This document shows positions 9,541 through 31,210 of a stretch of 64,000 bases of DNA, in pieces; the stretch's first letter is position 1; each line of letters opens with the position of its first letter. The notes under the pieces are model-generated. The model was given only the letters and a program-made list of their open reading frames with translations, was not told where the DNA came from and searched no databases. Source of the DNA: Lachnospiraceae bacterium. Lineage in GTDB: Bacteria; Bacillota; Clostridia; Lachnospirales; Lachnospiraceae. The translations under genes were made by a program, and so were the position numbers. The stretch spans positions 11,100-75,099 of the forward strand of contig CAAEWE010000058.1 of the NCBI GenBank assembly GCA_900759665.1. The letters are read 5' to 3'.

Positions 9541-11217
9541 TCAATTAAAATACCCGAAATCCACCGATTCCACGACTGCATCTGCAATATTCACACAGCT
9601 GTTTCCCATACGGTCAATGCTGTGAAGAATCTTATTGAATGAAGACGTCAATGCAGCCTTACATTTACCGGTGCTGACACGCTTCATATGATCTTTGCGA
9701 AGCTTCAGATCCAGCTCCAGCACCTTGTCTCTCTTCTTAATGATCTTTGCCGCCTTATCCTTATCTCCGGTCTCCATAACCTTCAAAGAAGCATCATACA
9801 TATCTCCGATCAGCTTCAGGCTCTTTTCCAGATCCCTTGCCGCATCCTTGGAAAGTACGGACTTTTTCGTTTTCTGTGCTTCCTCCGAAAAGACCGATAA
9901 AATATCACCGCAAAGCAGCGAGATCCGGTTTACATCACTGAGTACATACATAATCCCTGCGGTCTGGGTTGCCTGCTCCTCCGTCAACACACCCGCAGAA
10001 AACAGATTGGTCAGATACTCCGTGATTCTGTCATCCAGACTCTGAACCGTCTGAATCTTCTGCTGCAGCTTCTCCTTATATTCTCTGTCTTTAAGAGAAG
10101 ATACCTCCGCTATCCCCGTGATAATTTCTTTCACAATGCCACTCAGCCGGATCACTTCCTTAGAAACAAGACGAAGTGCTGCTGTCGGCTGGTTGATCAG
10201 ATTATTATCAAGATACATTGGCTGTGATGCCTCTTTCTCTTTCTGGTCTCCCGGTATAATAAACATTACGATCTTTACCAAAAGCCAGATCAGTGGCAGC
10301 CATAAAATAGTCATGATCAGGTTAAATCCTGTATGGGCATTGGCAATCTGCCTGGAGATCACCTCCACCTCCGGTCCCTTCGGGGAAATATACTGTATCA
10401 GCTTTGCATACGGATGGATAAACCAGATAAAGATCAGGCTTCCGCTGATATTAAACATACAATGTGCCAGAGCTGTACGCTTGGCATCCCTGCTCTGTCC
10501 GAGACTTGCCAGTAATGCCGTGATCGTTGTACCAATATTGTCACCTAACAGGATCGGAATCGCTCCCGCCAGGCCAAGGATACTTGCTCCGTTTGGTCCT
10601 GCCTGCTCTGCAAAATTCTGTAAAACCGCAATGGTCGCAGAACTGCTCTGTACAACAAGTGTCATTAATGTTCCCACACAAACGCCCAGGATCGGAATAT
10701 TAGCCACCTTTGCAATCATTGCCGTAAAGACCGGGCTTCCTGCCAACGGCTTCATAACATCTCCCATGGTCTCAATTCCTAAGAAAAGAACACCAAATGC
10801 AAAAACGGTCTGTCCGATGTTTTTCACCTTCTCGGATTTACATAAGAAAGAAACAATAAATCCGGCAAAGATCAGCACATAAATATAGTCGCTGATCTTA
10901 AATGCAATGATCTGTGCTGTCATGGTAGTGCCGATATTAGCGCCTAATATAATAGAAATTGCCTGTGGCAGATTCATCAGACCTGCGCTGACGAATCCAA
11001 TCGTCATAACGGTTGTCGCACTACTGCTCTGTAAAACTGCTGTGGTCAATGCACCTGCCAAAACTCCAAGTATCGGATTTTTTGTCAAAAGTGCCAGAAT
11101 CGATTTCATTTTCTCGCCTGCTGCCTTCTGCAGGCACTCACTCATCATATTCATTCCAAATAGGAATAATGCCAATCCTCCCAATAGTCCAAATGCGATC
11201 TGAACCGAACTATTCAT
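9541..11217 (-). CDS. Na+/phosphate cotransporter (NptA / Na_Pi_cotrans family) with a C-terminal PhoU-like domain
   Basis: Duplicated Na/Pi cotransporter repeats (QSSSATT... twice) and a C-terminal PhoU-like helical region. Start at M13 (MNSSVQ) with GGAGGAAAA upstream. Confidence 0.8.
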   Translation of the reverse strand: MNSSVQIAFGLLGGLALFLFGMNMMSECLQKAAGEKMKSILALLTKNPILGVLAGALTTAVLQSSSATTVMTIGFVSAGLMNLPQAISIILGANIGTTMTAQIIAFKISDYIYVLIFAGFIVSFLCKSEKVKNIGQTVFAFGVLFLGIETMGDVMKPLAGSPVFTAMIAKVANIPILGVCVGTLMTLVVQSSSATIAVLQNFAEQAGPNGASILGLAGAIPILLGDNIGTTITALLASLGQSRDAKRTALAHCMFNISGSLIFIWFIHPYAKLIQYISPKGPEVEVISRQIANAHTGFNLIMTILWLPLIWLLVKIVMFIIPGDQKEKEASQPMYLDNNLINQPTAALRLVSKEVIRLSGIVKEIITGIAEVSSLKDREYKEKLQQKIQTVQSLDDRITEYLTNLFSAGVLTEEQATQTAGIMYVLSDVNRISLLCGDILSVFSEEAQKTKKSVLSKDAARDLEKSLKLIGDMYDASLKVMETGDKDKAAKIIKKRDKVLELDLKLRKDHMKRVSTGKCKAALTSSFNKILHSIDRMGNSCVNIADAVVESVDFGYFN

Positions 11218-11749
11218 AAATTTTCCTCCATCTTCTTTACGTGCTTTTATCAACTCTTCTTTTTTACTTCCTAATCATCATAACAAGCACTTGTAAAGCT
11301 TATATGGGGGTTATGTAAAATGTAAGTAAAAAATTTTACTTCCTTTTCACCACGTTTTTACTTAAGAGGGCACTCCTACCATTCCCGCTATGAAAACTGC
11401 CAACAGGCCCAGCCATCCACGGCTTCGTAATAATTGTGCCTTCGGCTCTGATAATACAAATTCTCCCATATCATCGAATACCAAATTCTTTATTCCAAAG
11501 CCTTCCTCCTTCAATGCCTTTACCAGCACCTCTGCCATTTGGGCATATGGCATCCACACCAATGCCTTTCCTATATTGCCATTTTATTTTCCACTGTACT
11601 TTTAATAGTGCACCCACTTTTTGGATGCCAGGAACTCCTCCCGACCGTATGACGTTGGATAGCTTTTTCATAAAAATCTGCATTCCTTTCTAAGCCTGCG
11701 AACTTTGCTATATCCACAAAATTATGCATTTCATTTACACGCTAAAGTA

Positions 11750-12171: not shown

Positions 12172-12852
12172 TTACTGTGCCTGATCCTCCGGGATCAATT
12201 TGCCATGTACATGCTCCCCAGTCAGGGAAAAGATTACCCATTCCGAAATATTTGTAGCATGGTCTCCGATCCGCTCAAAATATTTGGCAATCATCAAAAG
12301 ATCAGAAGCCTGTTCTCCACAATCCGGATCCTTATGGATCAGCTGTACCAGCTCTGTCTGCACCTGCCGGAACAGATCATCTACCACATCATCCTTCTCG
12401 ATCACAGCTGCTGCCTGAAGCTGATTGCGGTTTACAAAAGCATCCACACTCCCCACCAGCATCACAGATGTCTCTTTTGCCATGCTCTGAATATGATCCA
12501 GATGCTTGATATACGGCTGATTTTTTTTCAAAAGCATCACAATGATCTCGGAAATATCTGCGGCATGATCTCCGATCCGCTCCATATCCGTGATCATTTT
12601 AAGCGCGGAGGAAATCTGACGGAGATCCCTTGCCACCGGCTGCTGCTGTAGCAGGAGCTTCAGACAGAGACTCTCAATGTCTCTTTCCTGACGGTTGATC
12701 TGCTCATCAGAATCAATGACATATTTTGCCAGATCAATATCCTGTGTTACCAGAGCCTTGATGGTATGCTCAATCGCCTTTTCGATCATGCTGCCCATCT
12801 CGATCAGCTCATCATTTAATTTACTTAACTGTCTATCAAAATGTGTTCTCAT
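12172..12852 (-). CDS. phoU: phosphate transport system regulator PhoU
   Basis: Two PhoU repeats (DMERIGDHAADISE and FERIGDHATNISE). Start at M60 (MRTHFDRQL) with AGAGGTGG upstream. The longer track ORF overlaps pstB. Confidence 0.85.
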   Translation of the reverse strand: MRTHFDRQLSKLNDELIEMGSMIEKAIEHTIKALVTQDIDLAKYVIDSDEQINRQERDIESLCLKLLLQQQPVARDLRQISSALKMITDMERIGDHAADISEIIVMLLKKNQPYIKHLDHIQSMAKETSVMLVGSVDAFVNRNQLQAAAVIEKDDVVDDLFRQVQTELVQLIHKDPDCGEQASDLLMIAKYFERIGDHATNISEWVIFSLTGEHVHGKLIPEDQAQ

Positions 12853-12937
12853 TTCTCTGCCACCTCTTTTTTGAACTTCTTTATTAACAATAGCCTGCTG
12901 TTTTAATATCTCTACAGAATATACACCACAGGCTCCA

Positions 12938-13744
12938 TCATCCGAAACGTCCTGTGATATAATCCTCTGTCCGCTTATCCTCCGGCATAGAAAACAGCTT
13001 CTCGGTATCGTTATATTCCACCATCTCACCCAGCAGGAAAAATGCCGTCTTGCTGGAGATACGGGTTGCCTGCTGCATATTATGGGTTACCATGATAATG
13101 GTGTAATCCTTCTGCAGCTCCAGTGCGAGCTCCTCAATATGAGCGGTAGAGATTGGATCCAGTGCCGATGTCGGCTCATCCATCAGGATCACCTCCGGCT
13201 CCACTGCCAAAGCTCTCGCAATACAGAGACGCTGCTGCTGTCCACCGGACAGACCCAGTGCCGACTTTTTGAGACGATCCTTTAACTCATCCCAGATCGC
13301 CGCCTGACGCAGGGACTTCTCCACGATCGCATCCAGCTTCTGTCTGGAATGAATGCCGTGGGTTCTGGGTCCATAGGCAATATTGTCGTAAATGCTCATT
13401 GGAAATGGATTGGGATTCTGAAATACCATTCCCACTCTCTTCCGGAGATGATTCACATCGATATCTCCGTAAATATTCTCATCACCCAGCATCACCGTTC
13501 CTTCGATCCGGCATCCCTCCACCAAATCATTCATCCGGTTTAAAGATTTCAAAAAGGTACTCTTCCCGCAGCCGGATGGTCCGATAAATGCAGTAATGCG
13601 GTTCTGCGGAATATCAATATTAATATCCTTCAATGCATGAAAACTGCCATAATGAAGATTTAACTTTTCAACATGAAACTTGGTTGCCGCAGATACCGGA
13701 TGCTCCGATGCCTCTACTACAACATTTGAATATACTGTATCCAT
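12938..13744 (-). CDS. pstB: phosphate ABC transporter ATP-binding protein
   Basis: Walker [10 protein letters not shown], signature [15 protein letters not shown] and Walker [12 protein letters not shown], with PstB-like length and ends. Confidence 0.9.
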
Positions 13745-13828: not shown

Positions 13829-14695
13829 TCAAATCTTTGATTTCAGCTTATTTGCCAAAATGTTGGAGATAAAATTGATGACGATCACAAATACCAGCAA
13901 TACAACTGCAGTGGCAAATGCCTGATCCGTATGAAGACCTTCCTTTGATAAGTTATACATATGTACGGAAAGAGTTCTTACCGAGGATCCAAAGAATCCC
14001 TTGATCCCGGCATTTACCTTAGGAACTGCTGCCACCGTACCTGCCGTAAAGATCAAAGCGGCTGTCTCTCCCACGATACGTCCGATGGAGAGGATCACAC
14101 CGGAAAGAATTCCCGGTACTGCCGATGGAAGTACCGCCCGGAACACCGTCCGAAGTTTTCCGGCTCCCAGTCCGAAGCTTCCTTCCCGGTAGCTTCTCGG
14201 CACCGCCAGAAGTGCCTCCTCACTGGTTCTCATAATCGTTGGCAATACCATGATCGCCACAGTCAGCGCACCGGATATCAATGAATATCCCATATGAAGT
14301 GCTGTACAGAAAAACAACATTCCGAACAATCCATATACGATTGACGGGATACCTGACAACGTCTCTGCCGTCACCCGGACAAGTCCGACAATTTTATTTC
14401 CCTTCTTGGCATATTCCACCATATAGATCGCTGCAAAGATTCCAAGGGGACCTGCCACCACAATGGCGAGAAGTGTCAACAGCAATGTGTTGATCAGTGC
14501 CGGTAACATAGATACATTGTCTGAATTATACGTCCAGGCAAACAGCTCCGGTGTCAGATGGGGCACTCCTTTTACCAGAATGTAAACAATCAACGATCCC
14601 AGTGCCAGTACCGTGATCACTGCCGACAGGATCGTCAGCAGAAGCACCACCAGAGAACCGGGATGATGGAGATATGTTTTTAATTTCACCTTCAT
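13829..14695 (-). CDS. pstA: phosphate ABC transporter permease PstA
   Basis: Six TM helices and the BPD_transp_1 EAA-loop region (SYREGSFGLGAGKLRTVFRAVLP) of the PstA type. Immediately upstream of pstB. Confidence 0.85.
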   Translation of the reverse strand: MKVKLKTYLHHPGSLVVLLLTILSAVITVLALGSLIVYILVKGVPHLTPELFAWTYNSDNVSMLPALINTLLLTLLAIVVAGPLGIFAAIYMVEYAKKGNKIVGLVRVTAETLSGIPSIVYGLFGMLFFCTALHMGYSLISGALTVAIMVLPTIMRTSEEALLAVPRSYREGSFGLGAGKLRTVFRAVLPSAVPGILSGVILSIGRIVGETAALIFTAGTVAAVPKVNAGIKGFFGSSVRTLSVHMYNLSKEGLHTDQAFATAVVLLVFVIVINFISNILANKLKSKI

Positions 14696-14859
14696 TTTCC
14701 TACATTTCCTTTCTCTATAAAGTCGACCACGTGACCGCCGGCTGCAAAATCAGCCGGCCATGCGATATTCTTTTTGCTGTTCTGCCGATACTGCTTTGTT
14801 TTATCTACAGGCAGCAAATTGATTGAAACTAAAAAATTCCAACAAATAAGAAAAAGCCA

Positions 14860-14945
14860 TCGCTTTATTCACGATGACTTAATCTTAAATTTATGAAGTA
14901 AAATCTGCTATCCTGTTTACGTCAAATCTGTGTAAAATGTCTGTG
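14860..14945. promoter_or_regulatory. Copy A of a duplicated ~85-bp pst promoter-like sequence (TTTACG/TGTGTAAAA Pho-box-like repeats) upstream of pstA
   Basis: CGATGACTTAAT...GTAAAATCTGCTATCCTGTTTACGTCAAATCTGTGTAAAATGTCTGTGAA is about 80-85% identical to 37040-37130 upstream of pstS. It lies 165-250 nt upstream of the pstA ATG. Confidence 0.5.
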
Positions 14946-14951
14946 AAGCGG

Positions 14952-16049
14952 TTACTGGATCCATTTGTATCGTAATTTGTACTCGTTGAGGTACTGATAA
15001 CCCAGATGCTTTTCTCTCTGTAGACGCCCGATCACGATATATGGCATGACGTTCTGTGACTCCGCAAATCTCCGGATCGCTTCTATACTATAATCTCCCG
15101 CATTCACAAATGCCTGATAATCATTACGGTTCATAAGCCTGTCGCCGGCAAACCGATCCGCCGCCTGCTCCTTCTTTCGATCCATTCCATCATCCACAAA
15201 GCTTGCATTCTTACCCAGATCTCCATTTACCAGATGTCCTAATTCATGAAATAGAGAAAACCAGAAAATATCTGCATATGATCCACGAAGTGTCAGTACT
15301 ATTTGATATGTCCCATCACTTTTCTGCGAAATATATCCTTGAACCGGTGCTCCCCGAAAATTGTGAAAAACAGCAAAATCAATTCCATAACCTGCCATAA
15401 CCTGTCTTAAATCTTTTTGGAAATTCGGATCACATTTTCGCATTATCCCTTTAATCTGATCAACTAACTCATCGATCCTTGACGCATCAAATTGCGACTC
15501 AACACTTCTACTATCTGCCATAATCTTGCACATCCTCATCCATGCACCCATAACATATGGATCAACTGCTTTATCTGCCATACGGAATGCCCCCGCTGGA
15601 GCAACCTCCTTCAGATTGGCTAAATTACTGATCTGCAAAGATTTTCTCAGGGATAATATAGAATCCTCCTTCTTTTCTCTCTGCGGAATCCTTCCCTTTT
15701 TCCGCAAATAACTGACAATCTCCTTCAATGATTCCCTTGCCTGCTTTTCCTCCTCTGTGATCGTCATTTCTGCATTATATTCCAGTAATTCAGCATCATA
15801 TCTCGCCTGTAAATTAAGCCAGAAAGACTTTGGTACCCCTAATGCATACTCTAATCCAAATGCAAAGTTGGCTGAGATGTCCTTTTTTCCTGCGATGACA
15901 TTGCTTACATATGCTGCCGAGACCCCCGCTCTCGCTGCCAGTTCCGCCTGTGTAATATTACGTTCTACCAAAATATCTGAAATCGTCTCTCCCGGATGTA
16001 TGATCAGATCACGGGATATACCAGTTTTCTTTACTGCCATGGTAATCAT
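14952..16049 (-). CDS. higA: antitoxin-like protein: HigA-type HTH fused to an ImmA/IrrE (M78) metallopeptidase domain
   Basis: N-terminal HigA signature (IHPGETISDILVERNITQAELAARAGVSAAYVSNVIAGKKDIS...FWLNLQARYD). C-terminal DUF955/M78 domain with HELGH (FHELGHLVNGD). Overlaps the upstream higB-like gene. Confidence 0.7.
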   Translation of the reverse strand: MITMAVKKTGISRDLIIHPGETISDILVERNITQAELAARAGVSAAYVSNVIAGKKDISANFAFGLEYALGVPKSFWLNLQARYDAELLEYNAEMTITEEEKQARESLKEIVSYLRKKGRIPQREKKEDSILSLRKSLQISNLANLKEVAPAGAFRMADKAVDPYVMGAWMRMCKIMADSRSVESQFDASRIDELVDQIKGIMRKCDPNFQKDLRQVMAGYGIDFAVFHNFRGAPVQGYISQKSDGTYQIVLTLRGSYADIFWFSLFHELGHLVNGDLGKNASFVDDGMDRKKEQAADRFAGDRLMNRNDYQAFVNAGDYSIEAIRRFAESQNVMPYIVIGRLQREKHLGYQYLNEYKLRYKWIQ

Positions 16050-16377
16050 TCACTCCTTCCACTTCTATCTCTGTGCATATCATAACTGTATCCTGTACTG
16101 CGTTTGGTTCCAGAATCAACCTGACATGGGGAGCCACATGCAGGGAATATCTTATGTTAGTATATCCCTTTAACTGCTCTGGTTTACCCAGTCCTAAGCT
16201 CAAAAAATCCCCAAAGCACTCTGCCGCTTCCAATCTGTCCATATGTTTTTTGATCGTCCGGACCCATTCCATCGGTAACTTTTTACGCATCATGCTATAA
16301 TCATTAAAGTACTTTTCCACTTTCTTATTTGCGTATGTTATTTTCAACAGCTCACCACCTTTTATACGATTAACCAT
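16009..16377 (-). CDS. higB: HigB-family (RelE-fold) toxin
   Basis: KKVEKYF...LKGYTNIRYSLHVAPHVRLILEP...VEGVNDYH matches the HigB_toxin pattern, including the C-terminal DYH. ATG chosen at MVNRIK; the track M1 is a TTG. Confidence 0.65.
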   Translation of the reverse strand: MVNRIKGGELLKITYANKKVEKYFNDYSMMRKKLPMEWVRTIKKHMDRLEAAECFGDFLSLGLGKPEQLKGYTNIRYSLHVAPHVRLILEPNAVQDTVMICTEIEVEGVNDYHGSKENWYIP

Positions 16378-16541
16378 TTGGTTAATCAATAATAGCAAGT
16401 AATATACTCTATGTCAATAGACAATGAAAAGAGACTGTAAAAACTCATCGAACCAAAAAAACGCCTGATCCGACATTTGCCAAAACAGACGTTCCCTGGT
16501 TAGAGATTATTACCACCTTCTTTTTCCTACAAATACTATTA

Positions 16542-17573
16542 CTATCTCCCATTTCTCGCACAACATGGGGATGCATACAGCTTTCCGTGGGTAAAATAAT
16601 TATAAGATCGGCACCCTGCAGCACATCGATCCGCATACCCACACTCCCTGCACGCCCCCTCTAATAGATCTGGCGTAAATTGACGGTTATAGGAAAATGC
16701 CCCCGGATCGTTCCATATATCATCCAGAGAACGGTCACGAAGATTTCCCTCTATAAAAGCTTCATCATACATGGATTCACATCCACGAACATTCCCCACA
16801 CTGTCAATCCCTATATTCGTGAGTCCCGCACCGCATCCCAGAAAAACTGCCCGTCCGCTGGTATTACCTCTTAATGTTCCCTCTGACTCTGTATAATAAC
16901 CAATATTGTCGGCTATCCCAATGGCAAAGTCAGAGCTTGCAATATGCTCCTCCACAAACCTGATCACACGCTGAAAGTCAATCTCCGTGGAAAAAATACC
17001 ACTGGAAGCATTTCCCATAGGAGAGCATGCCTGTAACTGCCATGCAAAAATCTTTTTGATCCGAAGCAGCTCATACATTTCCTCCAAATGACCGACATTC
17101 CTGCTGTGTAACGTACTGATCACCGATACCGGTATATCATTTTCAACTAATACCTCAAGTGCTTTCATTGCACATTTAAAGCTGCCCTTCTGCCGGAACA
17201 GGTCGTGAACTTCTTCGGGACCATCCAGGGAAATTGCAATAGATTCAATCCCTGTATCTTTTATCTTCGCCAAAGTCTCTTCCGTAAAAAGATATCCATT
17301 TGTAATTATGGATACATTCACATTTCGGTGGGTCAAAGCCTTTGCAATGACCGGCCAATCCTGACGCATAAACACCTCCCCGCCAATCATGGAAACCCTT
17401 TCACAGCCCAGTTCTGCCAACTGCTTCGCAACGTCCAGACACTCCTCTGTCGTTAATTCATTCTCACGGGCAGTCCCCGCCTTTGATCCACAATATTGAC
17501 ATGAAAAACAGCATGCCAGTGTAATCTCCCACACACAGGTACGTAACGGGTAATAATACTCCTCTTTATTCAT
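16542..17573 (-). CDS. radical SAM / SPASM-domain peptide-modifying enzyme (first of two)
   Basis: CxxxCxxC at ACCFSCQYC. C-terminal SPASM/twitch Cys clusters (GCGAGLTN...GCESMY...GACRECGYADRCAAGCRSY). Confidence 0.85.
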   Translation of the reverse strand: MNKEEYYYPLRTCVWEITLACCFSCQYCGSKAGTARENELTTEECLDVAKQLAELGCERVSMIGGEVFMRQDWPVIAKALTHRNVNVSIITNGYLFTEETLAKIKDTGIESIAISLDGPEEVHDLFRQKGSFKCAMKALEVLVENDIPVSVISTLHSRNVGHLEEMYELLRIKKIFAWQLQACSPMGNASSGIFSTEIDFQRVIRFVEEHIASSDFAIGIADNIGYYTESEGTLRGNTSGRAVFLGCGAGLTNIGIDSVGNVRGCESMYDEAFIEGNLRDRSLDDIWNDPGAFSYNRQFTPDLLEGACRECGYADRCAAGCRSYNYFTHGKLYASPCCARNGR

Positions 17574-17594
17574 AGTCCTGTATTCCTTTTACAA

Positions 17595-18383
17595 TTATTT
17601 CAATCGGTTTCTGATACGCTGTAACAAAGAATCCTTTTTCCTGGCATGCATTTCAGGATACCTGCCAGAAAGCCTGCCGGTTTTACCTTTTCCTTCCATT
17701 CGTTCCGGAGACGCATATACACATCTCATCTCTGGTTCCGGAGATGCATATACTTTATCCATTGTCACATCCGGTCTCGGGGATGCGTATACTTTATCCA
17801 TTGTTACATCCGGTCTCGGGGATGCATATACTGCTCCCGTCTCAACCCACATGTCCTTGTCGTATTCGCTGTCCCACACATCACAAAACCGCCACAATGC
17901 GGCCTGCAGCCTTTCTAATTGATAGAATGCAGTCTCCTTCCACTGGCTGTTATTCAGCAACTCCGATGTATTATTTTCGGAATGATCTGCCATATAATCA
18001 CTATAAACCTTCAAAAAATCTCTGGTAAGCTTCGTTGTATCTGCTTCCATCGCCACAATATTGTCAACACATAATTTCAGCTCCAATATCGCGGCATCCG
18101 GCGTATCAGCCCGCCTCTCTAAATATGCTTTCATCTCCTTCAACGGACCAATAATGTCATTCCACATGCCAGAGATATCGGCTGTAATCTGATCGATTCT
18201 CTCAACGTGACCATCAAACGAGTTCTCATTCCCAGCTTCCAGATATCTTCTTTTCAATATATCACAGCATTTGATAAACAGCTTCATTGCCTCTGCCATG
18301 CGTTCATACCTGCTGTCTCTAAATAAGCTGTCCCACTCTGTTTCCATATCCGTTTTCTCCTCGTACTCATTTTCATGTAACAT
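17595..18383 (-). CDS. hypothetical helical protein with a C-terminal run of about 3.5 tandem 13-aa repeats (VYASPRPDVTMDK)
   Basis: The 262-aa ORF ends 22 nt before the rSAM/SPASM start. The repeats are encoded by 39-bp DNA repeats at 17711-17842. Confidence 0.5.
   Translation of the reverse strand: MLHENEYEEKTDMETEWDSLFRDSRYERMAEAMKLFIKCCDILKRRYLEAGNENSFDGHVERIDQITADISGMWNDIIGPLKEMKAYLERRADTPDAAILELKLCVDNIVAMEADTTKLTRDFLKVYSDYMADHSENNTSELLNNSQWKETAFYQLERLQAALWRFCDVWDSEYDKDMWVETGAVYASPRPDVTMDKVYASPRPDVTMDKVYASPEPEMRCVYASPERMEGKGKTGRLSGRYPEMHARKKDSLLQRIRNRLK
17711..17842. repeat. 39-bp tandem repeat, about 3.5 copies, within the coding sequence
   Basis: GGATGCGTATACTTTATCCATTGTTACATCCGGTCTCGG is repeated with 1-3 mismatches per copy. 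Confidence 0.7.
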
Positions 18384-18399
18384 TTCTCAAATCTATTAT

Positions 18400-19902
18400 C
18401 TACTTTCTAGTCCTCACCTTTTTCGTTGTACTCCATTTTCCTGTGACAATTTGATTATTGTTGGCACTGTTTCCATAAGCACATGCCCGAACGCAAATAT
18501 AATAGGTCTTTTTCTTCTTGAGATAAAGTGTTGCTTTCTTTCCCTCTTTCATTGCTACCCCTGCACCCTTAAAGTTCTTTTTGGTAGAGTACAAAATCGC
18601 ATAGAAATCAGCCCCTGCCACCTTCTTCCAGGTAACCTTCACTTTTCCGTGTTTCAATGGAGAAACTTTCTTGATCACCACTTTTCCCGGCTTTGACGGT
18701 ACTTTTTCATTGTCGATATCGACACGCTTCACAGACGATGGGGTTGCTGTCCGTGCCGCCGGTGCATTTGTCACCTGAGCTGCAGGTGTCCCGGTTGGCT
18801 GTGATTCCGTCTGTCCCGGTTTCGATGTCTCTGTTGCCGGCTGTTCCGGTTTTGATGTCTCTGTTGCCGGCTGTTCCGGTCTCGATGTAGATGTCGTATC
18901 CCCCATTGATACCTTTGTATCATCCGGAAGCTGGCTGCCAGAATTGTCCGGAGCCTTCGTCTGCGGAGGCAGTGTCACCTTGCATACCGGTGTCTCAGGA
19001 GCAGCCGGTTCCGGCGTAACCTCTGCCGGTGCCTGACCTGTAGTCGTAAAACTCCTCCTTGCATCCTTAAATTCCTGCCCCTCCACAACTGCATACAGTT
19101 CAAAATAATAGGTTGTTCCCGGAGTCAAAGTCATCTGCATATCATTATTCAGATTGCAGTTATAATTCACATAGCTTGTAGACAAACCACAATTTTCAGA
19201 ATAACTCTTAACCAGATTTCCATTTGCATTGTAAAGATAACATCCTACGGATGAGACCGTATGTTTATCCGGATTCATCACCTTAATATACATTTCCGCG
19301 TTTGTATCCCATACTCCATTTTGATTAAAGTCAGCAAATGTAATATTCGGAGTTGCCGGCTGTGCCGGTGTGTTGCCTGAATAAACCGGACGAATTGCAC
19401 AGGCTAATGCCGATATATTAAACCAGTTCTGAGTACAATAGGACTGATTATTAAAATTCTGATTCACCGCATTAAATCCCACGCTGTCTGCTGATGTAAT
19501 AATACCTACATGACCATACGCTGTCGTGCTGTAGGTACCGCAACTGTAATTCACCTTCCATACCGCAATATCTCCCGGCTGATAATCCCCGTACACTCTG
19601 ACCCATCCCGGCGGCAGTGCATTGGTGATATATGCATTAGCATTTCCTGTAGCATATCCTGCCACACCGAAATAATCATAATAATACTTGATCAGGTCTA
19701 CACACTGATTTCCATAAGCCCCATCGTAATCCAGCCCCTTGCCAATCTGAGCATTCGCCCATGCCACAGCTTCATCCCGCGTTGCGGCTTGCGCTGTCGC
19801 AGAATGACCTGCAAAGCTTCCGCAGATCACACTGGTAACCATAAGGGATACCGTCAAAATTACTGACAGAACCCGGCTTCCTGTTTTCTTTTTCATATGC
19901 AT
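18400..19902 (-). CDS. secreted CHAP-domain peptidoglycan hydrolase with a Thr/Pro-rich repeat linker and a basic C-terminal domain
   Basis: Signal peptide. CHAP Cys/His motifs (GNQCVDLIKYY ... YGHVGII). Three PEQPATETSK repeats. Lys-rich C-terminus. Confidence 0.75.
   Translation of the reverse strand: MHMKKKTGSRVLSVILTVSLMVTSVICGSFAGHSATAQAATRDEAVAWANAQIGKGLDYDGAYGNQCVDLIKYYYDYFGVAGYATGNANAYITNALPPGWVRVYGDYQPGDIAVWKVNYSCGTYSTTAYGHVGIITSADSVGFNAVNQNFNNQSYCTQNWFNISALACAIRPVYSGNTPAQPATPNITFADFNQNGVWDTNAEMYIKVMNPDKHTVSSVGCYLYNANGNLVKSYSENCGLSTSYVNYNCNLNNDMQMTLTPGTTYYFELYAVVEGQEFKDARRSFTTTGQAPAEVTPEPAAPETPVCKVTLPPQTKAPDNSGSQLPDDTKVSMGDTTSTSRPEQPATETSKPEQPATETSKPGQTESQPTGTPAAQVTNAPAARTATPSSVKRVDIDNEKVPSKPGKVVIKKVSPLKHGKVKVTWKKVAGADFYAILYSTKKNFKGAGVAMKEGKKATLYLKKKKTYYICVRACAYGNSANNNQIVTGKWSTTKKVRTRK
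18800..18890. repeat. 30-bp tandem repeat, 3 copies, encoding PEQPATETSK
   Basis: GTCTCTGTTGCCGGCTGTTCCGGTTTTGAT is repeated. Confidence 0.6.
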
Positions 19903-20254
19903 CTTCCTTTCTTTTTACTGTGTGATTTTTGTTTCCATGTCTATTGTAGCACATGGTATTCCACGAAATCTTTCCGTTTTTTTCAGTGTAGCTCTTCGCT
20001 AATTTCACATAGAAGGATTGTTACATTGTCCTTTCCTCCATTTTCAAGGGTATAGATATGATGTAAGAAAAGGTCTTTATTATCTAATGTATTTTGATTT
20101 TTTGTTTCTTTTTTAATTTATACCACATGAGTTTACTATAGTCTGTAAAAAATTTCATATTAGTCCATTGACTAAAAGTGAAAAAAATGGAAAAGTTTTA
20201 TTCCTTTCCATATGATAAACTGTAATAAAAATACTACCGGGAGGAATTAAACAC

Positions 20255-21211
20255 ATGGGATTAATAAATAATTTTATTTTCAACTCAATCAAACAAAAAG
20301 AAGACAATTTCACAAAAATAGTACGTGCTTATGATAATGGCGAAACCTGGGCACAAAAAGAATTTAATAATCTATTAAAAAATGGTGATCAAAATATCCT
20401 ATATCAAATTGACAGTATACGACAAAAAATCTATGCTAATGATGCAAAAAAAAATGATCCAAAAGCAATGTTTTATTATGGTATATCATCTCACGATTTC
20501 AATACATTTATGAGAATGTTAGTTCCATTGGCTGAACAAGGAAATGTAGATGCAATAATTGCCATAGCATCAGAATACTCACTTGGAACCATTACCTCAA
20601 GCAACGCCGAAGAAAGTTTTAAATGGTATTTAAAAGCTGCTCGCCTTGGAGATGTTTCCTCTCAAAATATCGTTGCATTGTCCTATACATGCAATGATGG
20701 ATGTGGCGAAATCAATTACGATAAAGCTTTTCATTGGTATTCTGCCTCCGCCAAACAAAACAATGCCAGTGGTTACTGTGGAATGGCAACCTGCTATGAA
20801 CATTGGCAAGATGAATTGGTCTTTCCACTACACGAAGCCACTTCCGTGCTGCACCAAAGGAATTATTCTGACATTAACGATGCCAGCCTTAAATATGACG
20901 AAAAGCGAATTGATTGTTATGAAACTGCACGGAACTTCATTTCAAACAATGATGAAGCTATCGAAACCTTCTACGGATTAGCAAAAAGCTATGCGTCAGC
21001 CAGCAAACATCTTTCTAATCAGAGCAATATACAAATGGCACAAAAATTGGCTATTTACTACTATTACGTAGCACACGACTGTGGTCACCCATATGGATTA
21101 AAATATGCAAAAGAGATTGCTGACAATAATAATATTTATGTCAATTTCTACAACATTGATGACTGGGCTGAAAAAGAAGGCATCATTACCTCTGAGCATG
21201 TAGAAAATTAG
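20255..21211 (+). CDS. Sel1-like repeat (SLR/TPR-like) protein, AT-rich
   Basis: Repeated A..WY.KAA..G motifs (KWYLKAARLGD, FHWYSASAKQNN). It is the only plus-strand gene in the accessory region and has an AT-rich upstream region. Confidence 0.65.
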   Translation: MGLINNFIFNSIKQKEDNFTKIVRAYDNGETWAQKEFNNLLKNGDQNILYQIDSIRQKIYANDAKKNDPKAMFYYGISSHDFNTFMRMLVPLAEQGNVDAIIAIASEYSLGTITSSNAEESFKWYLKAARLGDVSSQNIVALSYTCNDGCGEINYDKAFHWYSASAKQNNASGYCGMATCYEHWQDELVFPLHEATSVLHQRNYSDINDASLKYDEKRIDCYETARNFISNNDEAIETFYGLAKSYASASKHLSNQSNIQMAQKLAIYYYYVAHDCGHPYGLKYAKEIADNNNIYVNFYNIDDWAEKEGIITSEHVEN

Positions 21212-21216
21212 TAATC

Positions 21217-21257
21217 AAAAGGTCTGAACCACTCAACACGAGTGATTCAGACCTTTT
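21217..21257. terminator. bidirectional terminator between convergent genes
   Basis: AAAAGGTCTGAACCACTC-aacac-GAGTGATTCAGACCTTTTT: a 15-bp stem with an A-run on one side and a T-run on the other. Confidence 0.6.
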
Positions 21258-21281
21258 TACTTATTCCACCGACTATGTTAT

Positions 21282-21719
21282 TTAGCCTTCATTAAACGTT
21301 TCTTGAAATGCTTGTTGAAAAATATCATTCAAGACATCATAAAATGCATGCTCTTCCTTTTGATTTTTAGGTCCTAAAAGTGCTTTTCCAAGAATCCCCA
21401 TCTGCTGAGTTGATACTTCTCTTCTCCAGTTTTTACTGTCTCCAATCATATACTGTGTCAAATAACAACCATTTTCATTATTGTCAAATGCAAACGCATA
21501 TCCGTAATAATCCTTCATATGCATTGTATTATAGATTGTAATACATGGATACACCTTTCCAAGAAGTCCTTTTTTCTTACACTCATCTTTAGCAATCGTA
21601 AGGTTAATTCCATTCATCCTTGCCAATTCTGATATCTTCTGTGCAAACAAATCTAATGAAAAACCACTTCCACAAAATGCTGGATTACCACAAATTCTTT
21701 CATCTAATACTTTAATCAT
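21282..21719 (-). CDS. hypothetical protein (145 aa), last gene of the 11-gene operon
   Basis: Intact ORF with the same AT-rich composition and strand as the operon. No recognisable domain. Confidence 0.45.
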   Translation of the reverse strand: MIKVLDERICGNPAFCGSGFSLDLFAQKISELARMNGINLTIAKDECKKKGLLGKVYPCITIYNTMHMKDYYGYAFAFDNNENGCYLTQYMIGDSKNWRREVSTQQMGILGKALLGPKNQKEEHAFYDVLNDIFQQAFQETFNEG

Positions 21720-21791
21720 TTTTCTTTCGATGTATAAAACATCTGCTCCTTTCTACAAAATATGCTCACTTAAATTAAACAAGTAATTTAA

Positions 21792-21917
21792 TTAATGATC
21801 CTCTCCATATCTTGCTCTAACACAATGCCCACCTTCGCAAGATGAACGATCACTTGCCTCTGTATTAACTTTTACAGACACAACAACTTTTTTGATTTCT
21901 GGTTTTTGATAATTCAT
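21792..21917 (-). CDS. unannotated 41-aa peptide MNYQKPEIKKVVVSVKVNTEASDRSSCEGGHCVRARYGEDH, a candidate RiPP precursor
   Basis: ATG at 21917 lies 17 nt after the rSAM/SPASM stop (21935). AAAGGAGG RBS 9 nt upstream. TAA at 21792-21794. Too short for the track's 60-aa cutoff. Lys-rich N-terminus and a C-terminal C-x4-C-...-Y-G-E-D-H. Confidence 0.45.
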   Translation of the reverse strand: MNYQKPEIKKVVVSVKVNTEASDRSSCEGGHCVRARYGEDH

Positions 21918-21934
21918 AAAGTAATGCCTCCTTT

Positions 21935-23053
21935 CTACGGTTTTGCCAAATTTATCGCCTGTTCAAACGATATTTTATCCTCATAAAATGCCTTTCTTAT
22001 ATGAGCACTTTTACAAGCTTCTGAATCTCTATATTCCGGATTTCCATAAAGTAAATCCATTTCTGCCGGACAAATATCGCAATAATAGATCGACTCGCAT
22101 CCCTTACATTTATATTTATCCGATGCCACCAATTCCCCATATTTCCCAAACTCATCCCAAATCATGTCATAATTGCTTTTTTCCAGTTTTATTCCTCTGT
22201 GTCTTAATTTCATACACGGACACATATTGCCTTGGTAATCAATTACAAAACTATTCATTGCAACATTGCACGAATACACCTTTTCATTTTTTAACAACCA
22301 CTCTATAATCTGATCGTGATTAGATATCTTCTCTCGCGTTCCATTTGTTATCTGTGAGTAATAGTCCTCAAATTCATTCTTAAGCACAATATCCAAAGAA
22401 ATTCGATGGTTTCTTGGATCTTCATTTTTATCAATTGTTGGACAAATATCAAATGTATATACAAAAGGAATATCTAATCTTTCAGCAAGCTTTTTCATAT
22501 CAGTTAATTCTGGCAATGTGATATCAATAATCGGAGACTTCAATGAAATTCTCACACCTGCCTCCCTTATTTTAATACAATTTTCTATGACTCTTTCAAA
22601 CGCATTATGCACTCCTGTAACCTTGTAAAACGTCTCTTCATTTGCACCATATAACGAAATATCTACCAATAATGGAGGATATTTTTTTAATATCTCAATT
22701 AAATTATCAGTAAAAAAATATCCATTCGTAAACAGTTCTACTAGAAATCCTTTTTTCTTAGCATACAAATATATTTTATCAAAATCTTTTCTAGTTAATA
22801 TTTCTCCGCCCGTAAATGTTAAAAAAAGTATCCCTTTATCATATAAAATATCCATTATTTGCACTATTTGTTCATAGGTCATATCCTGTTCGCCATGAAA
22901 ATGCTGCAAATAACAATGTACACAATTAAAATTACATCTTGCAGTAATCTCAAATAAAACGGAGAATGGTTTTCTTTCCCTCATCCATTTTTCTCGCTTT
23001 TCTTCATTAAAATTTAAAATAGTCATATGTAACTTTTCATTAATTTCTTCCAT
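21935..23053 (-). CDS. radical SAM / SPASM-domain enzyme (second of two)
   Basis: CNFNCVHCY (CxxxCxxC) and C-terminal SPASM Cys clusters (CNVAMN...CPCMKL...CKGCESIYYCDICPAE). Start is 3 nt after the PqqD-like gene stop. Confidence 0.85.
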   Translation of the reverse strand: MEEINEKLHMTILNFNEEKREKWMRERKPFSVLFEITARCNFNCVHCYLQHFHGEQDMTYEQIVQIMDILYDKGILFLTFTGGEILTRKDFDKIYLYAKKKGFLVELFTNGYFFTDNLIEILKKYPPLLVDISLYGANEETFYKVTGVHNAFERVIENCIKIREAGVRISLKSPIIDITLPELTDMKKLAERLDIPFVYTFDICPTIDKNEDPRNHRISLDIVLKNEFEDYYSQITNGTREKISNHDQIIEWLLKNEKVYSCNVAMNSFVIDYQGNMCPCMKLRHRGIKLEKSNYDMIWDEFGKYGELVASDKYKCKGCESIYYCDICPAEMDLLYGNPEYRDSEACKSAHIRKAFYEDKISFEQAINLAKP

Positions 23054-23056
23054 CGA

Positions 23057-23338
23057 CTAGCATTCCTCCAAAAAACCTTCCTGTTTTAATGATTCAATAT
23101 AAACTTTAACATCTCTCAATAAGTCTTCTTCCGGAATTTTTTCCGAAATATTCTTCTTTAACGCTTCCACTAGTCCATATGCATTGATTGGTTTTGACAA
23201 CTGTTCCCAAAGGAATTCTCCTATTTCATTAAGTTGATATAAAAAACACTCATCATCAAAATAGTTTTGCGTTGCATCAATTAAAAATATCTCACCATGT
23301 ATATTTCTCTTTATAACATCTTTTCTTCTTGTAATCAT
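23057..23338 (-). CDS. PqqD-family peptide chaperone (RiPP recognition element)
   Basis: 93 aa: IHGEIFLIDATQNYFDDECFLYQLNEIGEFLWEQL...DVKVYIESLKQEGFL matches the PqqD/RRE pattern. Confidence 0.75.
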   Translation of the reverse strand: MITRRKDVIKRNIHGEIFLIDATQNYFDDECFLYQLNEIGEFLWEQLSKPINAYGLVEALKKNISEKIPEEDLLRDVKVYIESLKQEGFLEEC

Positions 23339-23396
23339 ATCGTATGTCTTCCCATTCCCTTTCGCTCAGCACAGCACCTACAATGCTCCACAAAAT

Positions 23397-23849
23397 TTAT
23401 ATATCATCCGCTTCTTCTGGAAGTTCAAACTCTTCTTTATTTAAATTTTCATTTGTCAAGGAAAAAAATTCTTCCTGTTTTCGACCTTCTTGATCTGTAA
23501 TCGTATATTTTCCTATTATTGCATGCGGACGCCAAGTATTTTCCTGATAATAGGGCTCAATTTCAACGTGTACATCATTACCATGCTCTAATTTATTAGC
23601 CCAAGTGTTTTCCAATGTTTTATATGCACTCCTGTTTATAAAACGATTCTGTGCAATCAAATTATCTAATTCGCCACTTCCACCAAACCGGCTTCCGATC
23701 AAATGTCCTCCATCGTCCGCATCGTGCCGAAATACACCTCCCGCTTTTAATTGAGCGGAAGCATTTCTTACTCCCCTTTCTAAATGTAAATCTCCCTCTG
23801 CCAAAACAATCCTGCCGTCATCATCTTTTTCATATGAATATCCATTCAT
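23397..23849 (-). CDS. mini DNA/RNA non-specific endonuclease of the DRGH / beta-beta-alpha-Me type (Endonuclease_NS-like)
   Basis: DDGGHLIGSRFGGSG...NLIAQNRFINRS...LENTWANKLE resembles the DRGH..N..PQ..N..W..E active-site region of Serratia/NucA-type nucleases. Only 150 aa. Confidence 0.5.
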   Translation of the reverse strand: MNGYSYEKDDDGRIVLAEGDLHLERGVRNASAQLKAGGVFRHDADDGGHLIGSRFGGSGELDNLIAQNRFINRSAYKTLENTWANKLEHGNDVHVEIEPYYQENTWRPHAIIGKYTITDQEGRKQEEFFSLTNENLNKEEFELPEEADDI

Positions 23850-23860
23850 TTCATAAGAAT

Positions 23861-24199
23861 TTACCTCATCTTTTTTTTTACATACTCATAAACCTCTGGT
23901 TCTTCATCTTCCCCAATCTCCTCCCACTCATCAAGCATCTGACTTAATTCATCAGAAATATCTTGTTCTTCATAATCTTCTCTGACATCAGATTCCATGT
24001 CCCCAACTTCTTCATATTCCTCTGAAATATCGACTTCATCATCGTAATATTCTGCAACTTCATCATAGTCAATATCACTTGAATCATACTCCACATCTGT
24101 AATATCAAGCATATCATCCAACACTGGAGTATCTACAACATCACTGCCGATATCATCCACATATTCCGTATCAAAACTCATATCATCCATTCTTCTCAT
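23861..24199 (-). CDS. highly acidic Asp/Glu/Tyr-rich protein (112 aa); possible nuclease inhibitor or DNA mimic
   Basis: Over 45% Asp plus Glu. Sits between the ATPase and nuclease genes. Overlaps the ATPase stop by 17 nt. Confidence 0.5.
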   Translation of the reverse strand: MRRMDDMSFDTEYVDDIGSDVVDTPVLDDMLDITDVEYDSSDIDYDEVAEYYDDEVDISEEYEEVGDMESDVREDYEEQDISDELSQMLDEWEEIGEDEEPEVYEYVKKKMR

Positions 24200-26855: not shown

Positions 26856-26861
26856 ACTTTA

Positions 26862-28562: not shown

Positions 28563-28577
28563 CAGTACCTCCCATTA

Positions 28578-29831
28578 TTATAAATCCTTTAATTTTTCTC
28601 GTTCGATTTTGAACTCCTCATCAGTGTATAACCCTTCCTGCCAAGCCATTTTCAAACGTTTTAACCGTTTCATATACTCTTCATCATCAATATGATGCTT
28701 TTCATTGCATGAATTTTCTACTGATGTTTTCAAATGAACCATTCCCGGTATATCATCACCATCCTCGTTGCCGTTGCTAGGGGTTACATTTATATTTGCA
28801 CTATCATTGTCTGTAATCGGTGTCATTAGACTACTTCCTTGAATTTCATTTCCAAAACTACTCATTGTCTGACTAATAAACGGTGCCATCCCCATTCCCA
28901 TTCCAACTCCCATCATGGGTGCACTACTTCTTCCAATGCCTTCATTAGCTGCCGCAATATCCATCACCCCAAATCCTCTTCGCTGATGTTCCGTCATATT
29001 AAGAGTTTTATTAGCAATACTTTGAGCGATTGCATCGCGTTTTTTTATTTCCTCATCTGCTATATGCTCCGTAATTCTGACATTTGCATTGATTGCAGCT
29101 TCTTTTATCCGATTTTTTTCTTCCATATCCAAGAAAGTATTTTGGGACCATAAATGTTTATACATTTGATAATTAGGATCATCATCAGATGCATTGATAT
29201 TATTCACGTATAGATCCACCAATGCTATTCCGTATTCAAACATATAACTGGAAATTGCCTTTTTAAGCTGTTCTGCAATTCCCATTGGATTACTCTCAAG
29301 ATTAAAAATCGAAGTATTTTCTTCTCTTAAAATTGCCGGAAGCCATTGTTTGATGCATGAAATGATGATTCCTTTAAAATATCTCATCATATGTTCCTGA
29401 TCGAATTGCGTCTCCGTTCCAACCAACTTCAATAATATTTTTTTGGAATCCACCACTTTAATACTCATTTCACCGGACGTGCTAATAGCAAATGGCGGCA
29501 AGTTCAGACTTGGATCACTGTATTTTACACCTCCAACTCCCCAATTAATTGCCATTTGTTCCGTCTTATTTACAAAATAAACTTGACAGTGAAATGGCGA
29601 GACCCCATCACTTGGCAAATTGATAAGTTTGTTCAAAATAGGTATATTTTTAGTCTGTAATTTATATGATCCTGGTTGAAATATATCCGTCAACTGACCA
29701 TCTTTAAAAAAAGCTGCTTCTTGTGTTTCATGCACAATTAAGGTCGAATGAGTATTAAAATCTTCTCCCGGAAACTTCCATACGAATGTTCTATTATTTA
29801 TTTCACCTTTTATTACGTCAAATATTAGCAT
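28578..29831 (-). CDS. SPFH/Band-7-like protein of the YdjI (COG4260, 'virion core protein-like') family with a C-terminal SHOCT domain
   Basis: FDVIKGE...FVWKFPGEDF...LIVHETQEAAFFKDGQ...CQVYFVNKTEQMAINWGV follows the YdjI pattern. C-terminal EEYMKRLKRLKMAWQEGLYTDEEFKIEREKL is SHOCT-like. Confidence 0.6.
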   Translation of the reverse strand: MLIFDVIKGEINNRTFVWKFPGEDFNTHSTLIVHETQEAAFFKDGQLTDIFQPGSYKLQTKNIPILNKLINLPSDGVSPFHCQVYFVNKTEQMAINWGVGGVKYSDPSLNLPPFAISTSGEMSIKVVDSKKILLKLVGTETQFDQEHMMRYFKGIIISCIKQWLPAILREENTSIFNLESNPMGIAEQLKKAISSYMFEYGIALVDLYVNNINASDDDPNYQMYKHLWSQNTFLDMEEKNRIKEAAINANVRITEHIADEEIKKRDAIAQSIANKTLNMTEHQRRGFGVMDIAAANEGIGRSSAPMMGVGMGMGMAPFISQTMSSFGNEIQGSSLMTPITDNDSANINVTPSNGNEDGDDIPGMVHLKTSVENSCNEKHHIDDEEYMKRLKRLKMAWQEGLYTDEEFKIEREKLKDL

Positions 29832-29850
29832 ATGTTCATCCTCTTAGATA

Positions 29851-30925: not shown

Positions 30926-30970
30926 AAAACTGCCACATATCAACTTCACTCGCTGATATGTGACAGTTTT
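30926..30970. terminator. rho-independent terminator at the GC-normal / AT-rich boundary
   Basis: AAAAACTGCCACATATCA-acttcactcgc-TGATATGTGACAGTTTTT. Terminates the minus-strand gltS / small-gene transcript. Confidence 0.55.
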
Positions 30971-30978
30971 TCACAACA

Positions 30979-31176: not shown

Positions 31177-31210
31177 TTTCTCATTCCTCCATTAAATGAC
31201 CCTTGCATCA

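Follow-up and report, generated by a model that had tools for sequence, protein, structure and literature searches.

A split pst operon in the Jutongia huaianensis group carries two paralogous copies of a predicted PhoP-type promoter/terminator module

We analysed the pst locus in a stretch of 64,000 nucleotides from a Lachnospiraceae bacterium (GenBank assembly GCA_900759665.1, contig CAAEWE010000058.1, positions 11,100 to 75,099), hereafter called the window. The window belongs to the Jutongia huaianensis group of the Lachnospiraceae, its PstA being 100% identical to that of two collected relatives (loci L001 and L002) and 98% identical to that of the type strain NSJ-37 (L005). The pst genes lie there in two halves, pstS-pstC and pstA-pstB-phoU, and each half is preceded by a copy of the same sequence module of about 100 nt, which resembles a PhoP-type promoter followed by a terminator-like hairpin: copy B upstream of pstS and copy A upstream of pstA. 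The module is read along the minus strand, as are all pst genes, and the order along this strand is Na/Ca-exchanger gene, cysG-N-like gene, copy B, pstS-pstC, terminator, intervening island, copy A, pstA-pstB-phoU, Na/Pi-cotransporter gene, response regulator gene, histidine kinase gene and spo0A, with the following features at the two halves:

37901..37116, minus strand: cysG-N-like gene, lying together with the Na/Ca-exchanger gene 5' of copy B
37039..37141, minus strand: copy B, predicted promoter/terminator module upstream of pstS
37141-37136 (TTCACA), 37130-37125 (TTTACA), 37119-37114 (TTGACG) and 37096-37091 (TTTACG), minus strand: boxes of copy B
37081-37076, minus strand: predicted -10 element of copy B, TATCAT
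37074-37049, minus strand: hairpin of copy B, 11 pairs, followed by a T tract to about 37039
36069..36977, minus strand: pstS, lipoprotein phosphate-binding protein with PstS2-type domain order
35043..36038, minus strand: pstC, permease (NCBIfam TIGR02138, 303.7 bits, cutoff 196)
34949..34989, minus strand: strong intrinsic terminator, 19 pairs including 7 G-C, with T tract
14952..34831, minus strand: intervening island between the pst halves, about 20 kb
14844..14947, minus strand: copy A, the same module upstream of pstA
14947-14942 (TTCACA), 14936-14931 (TTTACA), 14925-14920 (TTGACG) and 14902-14897 (TTTACT), minus strand: boxes of copy A
14887-14882, minus strand: predicted -10 element of copy A, TAAGAT
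14880-14854, minus strand: hairpin of copy A, 10 pairs, followed by a T tract at 14853-14844
13829..14695, minus strand: pstA, permease (NCBIfam TIGR00974, 269.5 bits, cutoff 193)
12938..13744, minus strand: pstB, ATPase (NCBIfam TIGR00972, 413 bits, cutoff 343)
12172..13029 (bounds of the open reading frame, ORF), minus strand: phoU (NCBIfam TIGR02135, 217 bits, cutoff 130)
11277..11330, minus strand: third Pho-type promoter, TTTACT-N5-TTTACA-N15-TTTACA-N9-TATGAT, before the Na/Pi-cotransporter-PhoU gene

A repeat search of the window recovered copies A and B as an ungapped direct repeat of 77 nt (14871-14947 and 37065-37141) with 79% identity, and in a global alignment the whole modules agree at 84 of 107 columns (78.5%), the longest identical run being 13 nt. 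The module is confined to these two places: the 28-nt degenerate core TTGACGTAAANANGATAGNAGATTTTAC matches the window exactly twice and the three-box pattern likewise exactly twice, against expectations from dinucleotide shuffles of 0.00 and 0.01 matches, and an nhmmer profile of the module gives only 2 strong matches in the 64 kb, copy A with 105.9 bits and copy B with 89.1 bits. A weak match in the pstA-pstB spacer (13766-13809, 7 bits) was rejected, as the boxes are absent on inspection. A preliminary description, made from the letters of the window, had reported this repeat upstream of pstS and of the orphaned pstA, where it is indeed present; the size and identity given there (about 85 bp and 80-85%) give way to about 100 nt and 78.5%, the consensus, having been written for the plus strand, is functionally read on the minus strand, and the promoter boxes were recognised while the terminator-like hairpin went unmentioned. 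The pst gene assignments made there hold by NCBIfam, with PstC, PstA, PstB and PhoU above their cutoffs and PstS just below.

Both copies follow the scheme TTCACA-N5-TTTACA-N5-TTGACG, 7 nt, GATAG(C/T)AGA, TTTAC(T/G), 9 nt, TA(A/T)(G/C)AT, 1 nt, hairpin and T tract, in which boxes 1-3 keep an exact 11-bp spacing and a fourth box stands 23 nt past box 3. The PHO box of Firmicutes has been described as several direct TT(A/T/C)ACA-like hexamers with a periodicity of about 11 bp (PMC11870197). The hexamers and the 11-bp period of copies A and B, on the coding strand, agree with it, as the likening of the TTTAC(A/G) direct repeats to PhoP boxes in the preliminary description had suggested. In both copies the boxes are also located upstream of Pho-regulon genes and combined with a -10 element and a weak -35 region, where the hexamer 17 nt upstream of the -10 element matches TTGACA, as read from the sequence, at 2 of 6 positions.

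The hairpin has the form AAGTCATCG...CG(A/G)TGGCTT in both copies. That of copy A consists of 10 pairs followed by TTTCTTATTT (-12.4 kcal/mol, z = -4.2) and that of copy B of 11 pairs followed by TATATTTTGT (-15.7 kcal/mol, z = -6.0), at distances of 72 nt (A) and 42 nt (B) from the upstream stop codons. Both thus present a stable stem-loop with a T tract downstream of a gene, as intrinsic terminators do in sequence. For copy B, the stop codon of the cysG-N-like gene (37116-37118) falls within box 3, so that the hairpin is the sole available terminator of that gene. Rfam gave no match to a known cis-regulatory RNA at the gathering score in the whole window; in a permissive search of both regions (E up to 1), the only matches were 2 weak ones to unrelated families, which lie outside the module on the other strand and score at best 20 bits where the threshold is 50, and a riboswitch or small-RNA reading was rejected.

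To place the split, relatives were collected by a PstA-based scan with one genome per species. In the closest of them (L001, L002, L004, L005 and L006, with PstA identities of 93% or more), no pstC stands in front of pstA, and copy A occupies this place in 5 of 5; L003 starts inside pstA and is uninformative on the split. From L007 on (PstA at most 84% identical), pstC directly precedes pstA, except in L031, where the split is independent, and in L062, whose sequence begins within pstA. Among the intact relatives, the pstC stop and pstA start overlap in some as TAATG, and PstA carries about 15 additional N-terminal codons, which the PstA of the window lacks. Within the clade, PstS proteins share 96-100% identity, versus 70-76% with those of L007, L008, L009 and L043; PstC is 76-81% identical to L007-L009 and PstA 83-84% identical to the nearest intact lineages. 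The similar identity of all five proteins, PstS, PstC, PstA, PstB and PhoU, to the nearest intact lineages (70-86%) argues for vertical descent of both halves. By this comparison, a single ancestral operon gave rise to both, and the split is derived and specific to this clade. The terminator at 34949..34989, which begins 54 nt past the pstC stop codon, is predicted to close the pstS-pstC transcription unit.

The same layout, box-N5-box-N5-box-N7-GATAGYRGN-TTTACN-N9/10-TAnnAT, recurs collinearly in the pstS promoters of at least 11 other Lachnospiraceae, tabulated as outgroups, and TAnnAT follows the last box after 9-10 nt in A, in B, in the A orthologues and in most outgroup pstS promoters. 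Beyond the motifs, A and B are far closer to one another than to this common background. They are 78% identical over 78 aligned nt, where the 11 outgroup promoters reach 47-65% identity with either, and at the 42 columns that vary among the outgroups they reach 71-79% identity versus a mean of 34% (maximum 45%) to the outgroups. The hairpin is common to A and B only, being absent from every outgroup pstS promoter compared, and the module profile scores 89-106 bits on A/B copies versus 7-24 bits on outgroup promoters, where its matches span only the part from the boxes to the -10 element, L035 excepted; the downstream hairpin of L035 looks unrelated on inspection. The third Pho-type promoter of the window has nothing but boxes in common with A and B. 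Because of the high identity outside the motifs, the shared hairpin and this third promoter sharing boxes alone, we regard A and B as lineage-specific paralogues, with a duplicated segment that runs, as judged from the alignments, from box 1 to the T tract. Past the T tract, five A-to-pstA spacers compared with the pstS leader behind copy B gave local alignments within the range of shuffled sequence, of which 17-203 in 500 scored at least as high. A 9-mer, CTTTATAGA, shared by the sequences after pstC and before pstA is taken as chance, as it is not conserved in L004, L005 and L006.

A metagenome scan with a pattern fitting both copies returned 50 loci. In 36 of these the match is of type A (followed by pstA in 32, by the end of the contig too soon in 3 and by a cut pstA in 1, L101), and in the other 14 it is of type B, located after the Na/Ca-exchanger and cysG-N-like genes (13 followed by pstS, 1 contig ending too soon); a third context was found for 0 of the 50. 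Among the 130 fetched loci, nhmmer gave no other strong module match except a copy in L115, A', described below. A dispersed repeat of the REP or MITE kind was rejected, with 2 copies in the window and all 50 metagenome matches in two contexts. Eight contigs carry both copies, in direct orientation and 10.4, 24.9, 25.0, 25.0, 25.5, 25.5, 30.0 and 31.4 kb apart, and one further contig implies an A-B distance of about 8.1 kb; in the window the distance is 22.2 kb. The split thus appears fixed in the clade while the content of the gap turns over.

Orthologues of A occur in L001, L002, L004, L005 and L006 and in 35 metagenome loci. Across at least 4 sequence lineages they keep the boxes, the hairpin and the TAnnAT element, which is TAAGAT or TATGAT. 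Upstream of box 1 their DNA differs in at least 6 ways, always with the boundary at the same place and, in most genomes, with the 3'-end remnant of an HTH-M78 gene adjoining box 1. From the T tract to the ribosome-binding site of pstA, the spacer measures about 20 to about 150 nt and is unalignable between lineages. That the module is kept while both flanks turn over is evidence of selection on the module.

Three unusual structures at copy A deserve mention. L115 carries a third copy, A', about 90% identical to A and with a 1-nt insertion between boxes 1 and 2, which lies 1 kb upstream of the live copy A and not in front of pstA (A' and A at 3236-3342 and 4229-4335 in the orientation of the motif, or 4471-4367 and 3478-3375 in the stored locus, on the opposite strand). 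A' has lost the -10 element (CAGGAA in its place) but retains the boxes and, immediately behind a gene of 912 codons, an intact hairpin; together with A it flanks a small cassette of 0.9 kb with its own perfect TTGACA-17-TATAAT promoter. This pattern is as expected if the -10 element matters only before pst genes and the hairpin serves the upstream gene. In L101 (9631-12512), copy A and the first 13 pstA codons are followed by unrelated DNA with a tRNA-like stretch and a pyruvate-kinase-like gene; this metagenome contig is either chimeric or comes from a strain in which pstA-pstB-phoU was lost. L092 and L099 share a mosaic structure, in which copy A and the first two-thirds of pstA are about 90% identical to the window and nucleotide identity drops to 72-74% in the 3' end of pstA, pstB and phoU; this points to recombination with a breakpoint within pstA (window position about 14030) and import from a divergent lineage.

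Splitting of pst operons is not confined to the J. huaianensis clade. The unrelated Lachnospiraceae genome UMGS1550 (L031) shows a three-way split, with pstS-pstC, a MATE-like gene, pstA, 8.6 kb of other DNA and pstB-phoU, and has a full Pho-type promoter before each fragment (6560-6640, 9860-9970 and 19395-19470); its pstA and pstS promoters are 47% identical and no closer to one another than to promoters of other species. In the Lachnospira loci L012, L013, L015-L018, L032, L035, L036 and L046, pstA is not followed by pstB. Splitting of the pst operon with each fragment placed behind a Pho promoter is, on these genomes, a recurrent event in this family, and only in the clade of the window can an origin of the added promoter by duplication still be read.

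The neighbouring genes include a candidate for the regulator that would read the boxes:

11253..9541, minus strand: Na/Pi-cotransporter fused to a PhoU domain, preceded by the third Pho-type promoter
8815-9531, minus strand: OmpR-family response regulator (Pfam)
7454-8833, minus strand: histidine kinase (HisKA, Pfam), followed by spo0A

The order pst-phoU-(NaPi)-regulator-kinase is kept in relatives that carry the regulator/kinase pair, and this conserved position after pst-phoU supports the assignment of the pair at 7454-9531 as the candidate PhoP/PhoR system. As for the pst genes themselves, pstS truly begins with the ATG at position 36977, preceded by a GAGGA ribosome-binding site, and the PhoU family profile matches from residue 63 onwards only, so that the real phoU start is probably located past the pstB stop codon. 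PstS scores 200.1 bits with the NCBIfam PstS family model, slightly below the cutoff of 206.6, and is collinear with PstS2 of Streptococcus pneumoniae (PDB 4h1x, E = 1.7e-68). Relative to the canonical PstS 4gd5 it is circularly permuted, with residues 192-300 corresponding to chain positions 38-146 and residues 40-171 to 148-272. A rearranged pstS gene, suggested by the odd order of Pfam and NCBIfam matches, was rejected, as the PstS2-type order is common to all Lachnospiraceae PstS matches and also found in 4h1x; this permutation is unconnected with the operon split. The window has one pstS, and a second pstS-like gene, 38-41% identical, is present between phoU and the Na/Pi gene in L083 (3338-4105) and in the L006-type metagenome loci L084, L090, L095, L120 and L129; L006 also has a second pstS-like gene (12947-13690), with the locus ending before the Na/Pi gene.

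The island between the two halves encodes, by Pfam, a CmpB-like protein, a TAXI binding protein, gltS, a low-GC core, a CHAP protein, a radical-SAM/SPASM protein and an HTH+M78 protein. The HTH+M78 gene adjoins copy A, and its product is similar to component B of PD-Lambda-2 (PD-Lambda-2_B, E = 9.5e-29, PADLOC). All island genes are on the minus strand, pointing towards pstA, except a Sel1-repeat ORF at 20255-21211 on the plus strand. Beside genes of normal GC, the low-GC core (about 19500-31000, GC 0.31-0.37 versus about 0.45 outside) includes the following genes:

28578-29831: SPFH protein
26862-28562: TIR protein
24183-26855: HerA/mad8-like ATPase
23397-23849: NS_2 endonuclease

Two radical-SAM genes with weak pVip matches and a PqqD gene are also present, and the island looks, from its gene content, like defence-type variable DNA. 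It ranges from 8.1 to 31.4 kb between strains within a conserved frame, bounded on one side by the CmpB-like gene and on the other, in most genomes, by the HTH-M78 remnant, and no recombinase (integrase, transposase or other) was found by Pfam among its ORFs of at least 80 aa. In-frame tandem repeats occur at 17726-17842 (3 x 39 nt, in a 262-aa ORF) and 18796-18885 (3 x 30 nt, in the CHAP-domain ORF). Elsewhere in the window, an inverted repeat at 538-623 and 801-886 has 86-nt arms that are 79% complementary and 177 nt apart; related pieces at the end of L004 (15-200) and in L089 (9077-9201) suggest that 538-886 is a small repeated or mobile element.

Collectively, we consider it probable that a promoter/terminator module of about 100 bp, of the PhoP type, was duplicated in this lineage alongside the split of the pst operon, and that copy A is a functional promoter. 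The ancestor of the J. huaianensis clade would have possessed an intact pstS-pstC-pstA-pstB-phoU operon with one such promoter. This operon would have been broken between the pstC stop codon and the first approximately 15 codons of pstA, DNA would have gathered in the gap, and a copy of the stretch from box 1 to the T tract would have been placed before pstA. Ectopic copying during insertion is one possible route, tandem duplication with later deletion another. Since the 19-pair terminator follows pstC, pstA would need a promoter of its own and could not be read from promoter B. Under phosphate limitation, the kinase/regulator pair would become active, and the PhoP-like regulator would occupy the 11-bp-periodic TT(N)AC(N) boxes of both copies and recruit RNA polymerase to the weak -35 region and the TAnnAT -10 element, such that pstS-pstC and pstA-pstB-phoU would be induced in parallel as separate transcripts. 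The duplicated promoter thereby probably keeps both pst halves under the same control. The hairpin with its T tract most likely stops transcripts arriving from the upstream gene (the cysG-N-like gene for B, island genes for A) and would so insulate the pst genes. Because the -10 element ends 1 nt before the stem, a start 6-8 nt past it would fall within the 5' arm of the hairpin (about 14875 for A and about 37069 for B), and Pho transcripts would contain a partial stem and escape termination; starting there, they would retain a stability of -5.7 (A) and -6.8 (B) kcal/mol in a remnant not flush with the T tract. Promoter activity, start site and PhoP dependence are predictions for both copies, and we infer PhoP binding, the start sites, the insulation and the mechanism of the copying event from the arrangement of these elements.

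The compensation of the split by a promoter duplication had been proposed in the preliminary description, and it is supported by the collinear boxes, the A-B paralogy, the clade-confined split, the pstC terminator and the non-dispersed copies. Of the checks suggested there, comparison with related genomes showed that the split is confined to the clade with copy A and that pstC and pstA adjoin in sister lineages, and dispersed copies, which were to speak against the idea, did not appear, with two contexts for all metagenome matches. Several observations weigh on the other side. The fourth 11-bp slot (AGGATA in one copy, ACGATA in the other) is a poor box, and the -10 element of copy A agrees with the consensus at only 4 of 6 positions. 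The best NCBIfam matches of the regulator (PhoB, 234 bits) and the kinase (PnpS/PhoR, 248 bits) fall below the curated cutoffs of 296 and 400, respectively. No pstS or pstC remnant was found after copy A, so tandem duplication followed by deletion leaves no visible trace. Copy B was not recovered for the L004-type or L006-type species, for which no protein-database search aimed at pstS-pstC was made, and copy A is therefore the one copy by which the duplication would be dated to the base of the clade. Finally, a transcription start 5' of the hairpin would make the module stop its own transcript and act as an attenuator rather than an insulator.

The last of these points defines an alternative of its own, in which the hairpin and U tract form a leader terminator that stops most transcripts of both pst units, with read-through modulated by phosphate stress, or else a 5' stabiliser. 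The hairpins are strong and terminator-like, they are kept with their T tracts in both paralogues and all orthologues amid scrambled flanks, and the start site rests on prediction. Nevertheless, the -10 element identified by cross-species footprinting puts the start within the 5' arm, the persistence of the hairpin in A' after loss of the -10 element fits a terminator of the upstream gene better than a leader element, the gene upstream of copy B has no other terminator, and Rfam contains no matching leader family; we consider attenuation unlikely. We regard it as very improbable that copy A is an inert relic, that is, only a terminator or functionless, with pstA-pstB-phoU transcribed from another promoter or decaying. 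The weak -10 element of copy A in the window and the pstA cut after codon 13 in one metagenome contig (L101) would be compatible with it, yet the boxes and TAnnAT are kept in all A orthologues while both flanks turn over, and the sole copy not fronting pstA did lose its -10 element. In addition, pstA, pstB and phoU are intact and above curated family cutoffs, and there is no other sigma-70-like site of good quality between 14844 and 14695.

Two further alternatives concern the likeness of A and B itself. Independent Pho promoters, alike only through binding the same regulator and sigma factor, would account for boxes and spacing that are common to all Pho-regulon promoters of the family, and the additional promoters of L031, no closer to its own pstS promoter than to those of other species, illustrate such a case. 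They would not account for the 71-79% identity of A and B at freely varying positions, for a hairpin of 26-27 nt with T tract absent from every outgroup or for the third Pho promoter of the same genome sharing only boxes, and we judge independent origin extremely improbable. The preliminary description had alternatively taken the repeats for the ends of the insertion event. Accordingly, A and B would be att-like direct repeats from integration of a mobile island, site-specific or of the Campbell type, at the pst promoter, and their likeness would be due to integration and not to selection. Direct repeats do flank a variable, defence-rich and partly low-GC island, the upstream edge of homology is sharp and always at box 1, and the 0.9-kb cassette of L115 likewise lies between two copies. 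However, the island ORFs searched include no recombinase, and the repeats would enclose pstS-pstC, which are as similar to sister lineages as PstA/PstB and hence not cargo. At 78.5% identity, with no shared run beyond 13 nt, there is no identical crossover core; variable content within a conserved frame points to turnover inside the gap instead of one mobile unit, and the predicted empty site, a promoter directly followed by pstA, is seen in no genome. A site-specific att pair is consequently not supported, and the reading as recombination scars appears improbable; nor is the gap one fixed insertion, as had been assumed, being a strain-variable island of 8-31 kb.

A bolder extension of the duplication would treat the module as a self-contained, repeatedly copied regulatory cassette, with island or cassette insertion at Lachnospiraceae Pho operons routinely bringing along a copy of about 100 bp. 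It is prompted by the B-to-A duplication, by A' and A around the cassette of L115 and by the Pho promoters before each fragment in L031, and we hold it to be unlikely. If it were true, the pst locus would be a tolerated landing pad for defence islands, with regulation rebuilt by copying and pasting the module, and the copying might use homology-facilitated illegitimate recombination with pstA as an anchor. The arrangement A'-cassette-A in L115 would, speculatively, fit such recombination anchored in pstA.

How genes orphaned from an operon keep their regulation is rarely visible, and here it can be read from the sequence: the two halves of an obligate four-part transporter could still switch on together. 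The comparative data amount to a natural deletion map, in which the flanks are trimmed to box 1 and to the T tract and a minimal module is left, and the -10 element of the redundant copy A' has decayed, as expected. The results mark pst in gut Lachnospiraceae as a locus where operons are repeatedly split and islands gained. In practical terms, they provide a well-defined, testable candidate PhoP promoter for a poorly studied gut genus with a cultured type strain.

Compared with known systems, the module is closest to the PHO-box pst promoters of Firmicutes such as Bacillus subtilis pstS and Lacticaseibacillus paracasei pstS: in both, direct TT(N)AC(N) hexamers recur every 11 bp along the coding strand in place of a good -35 region, a -10 element is recognisable, and a PhoP/PhoR-like two-component pair, in the window a candidate one, is encoded nearby. 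Boxes 2-3 of copy B, TTTACACAATCTTGACG, differ little from the L. paracasei pstS boxes, tttacacaatctttaca... (PMC11870197). Unlike these promoters, the predicted one of the window has a conserved GATAGYAGA element, a fourth box 23 nt past three good boxes and a terminator-like hairpin right after the -10 element, with a 1-nt gap; it also occurs twice per operon's worth of genes. Compact terminator-promoter junctions share the G+C-containing stem and T tract 42-72 nt past the upstream stop, the usual place of a terminator. They differ in that the terminator stands upstream of the promoter, whereas here it lies downstream of the next gene's -10 element; among the outgroups, L007, L008 and L035 have their upstream terminator just before or overlapping box 1. 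With the attL/attR sites of genomic islands, A and B have in common that direct repeats bracket strain-variable, partly low-GC and defence-gene-rich DNA, and they are set apart by a recombinase not being found, the lack of an identical core, the bracketing of vertically inherited pstS-pstC and a similarity of 78.5%. In the survey of operon death by Price, Arkin and Alm (2006, 'The Life-Cycle of Operons', PMC1480536), 11 of 66 dead operon pairs were attributed to insertion, and split pairs stay partly co-expressed. The pst locus resembles these cases in that a conserved operon is split with both halves still nearby. The survey gave no route for the retained co-expression, whereas here the ancestral regulatory region appears to have been copied before the downstream fragment, and the gap has since become a hot spot of island turnover. 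PhoP-type promoters and intrinsic terminators are both of well-known kinds, and no new class of element or mechanism is involved; what is new, as far as the sequences tell, is the documented duplication of an ancestral regulatory module and the unusual placement of a terminator after the -10 element.

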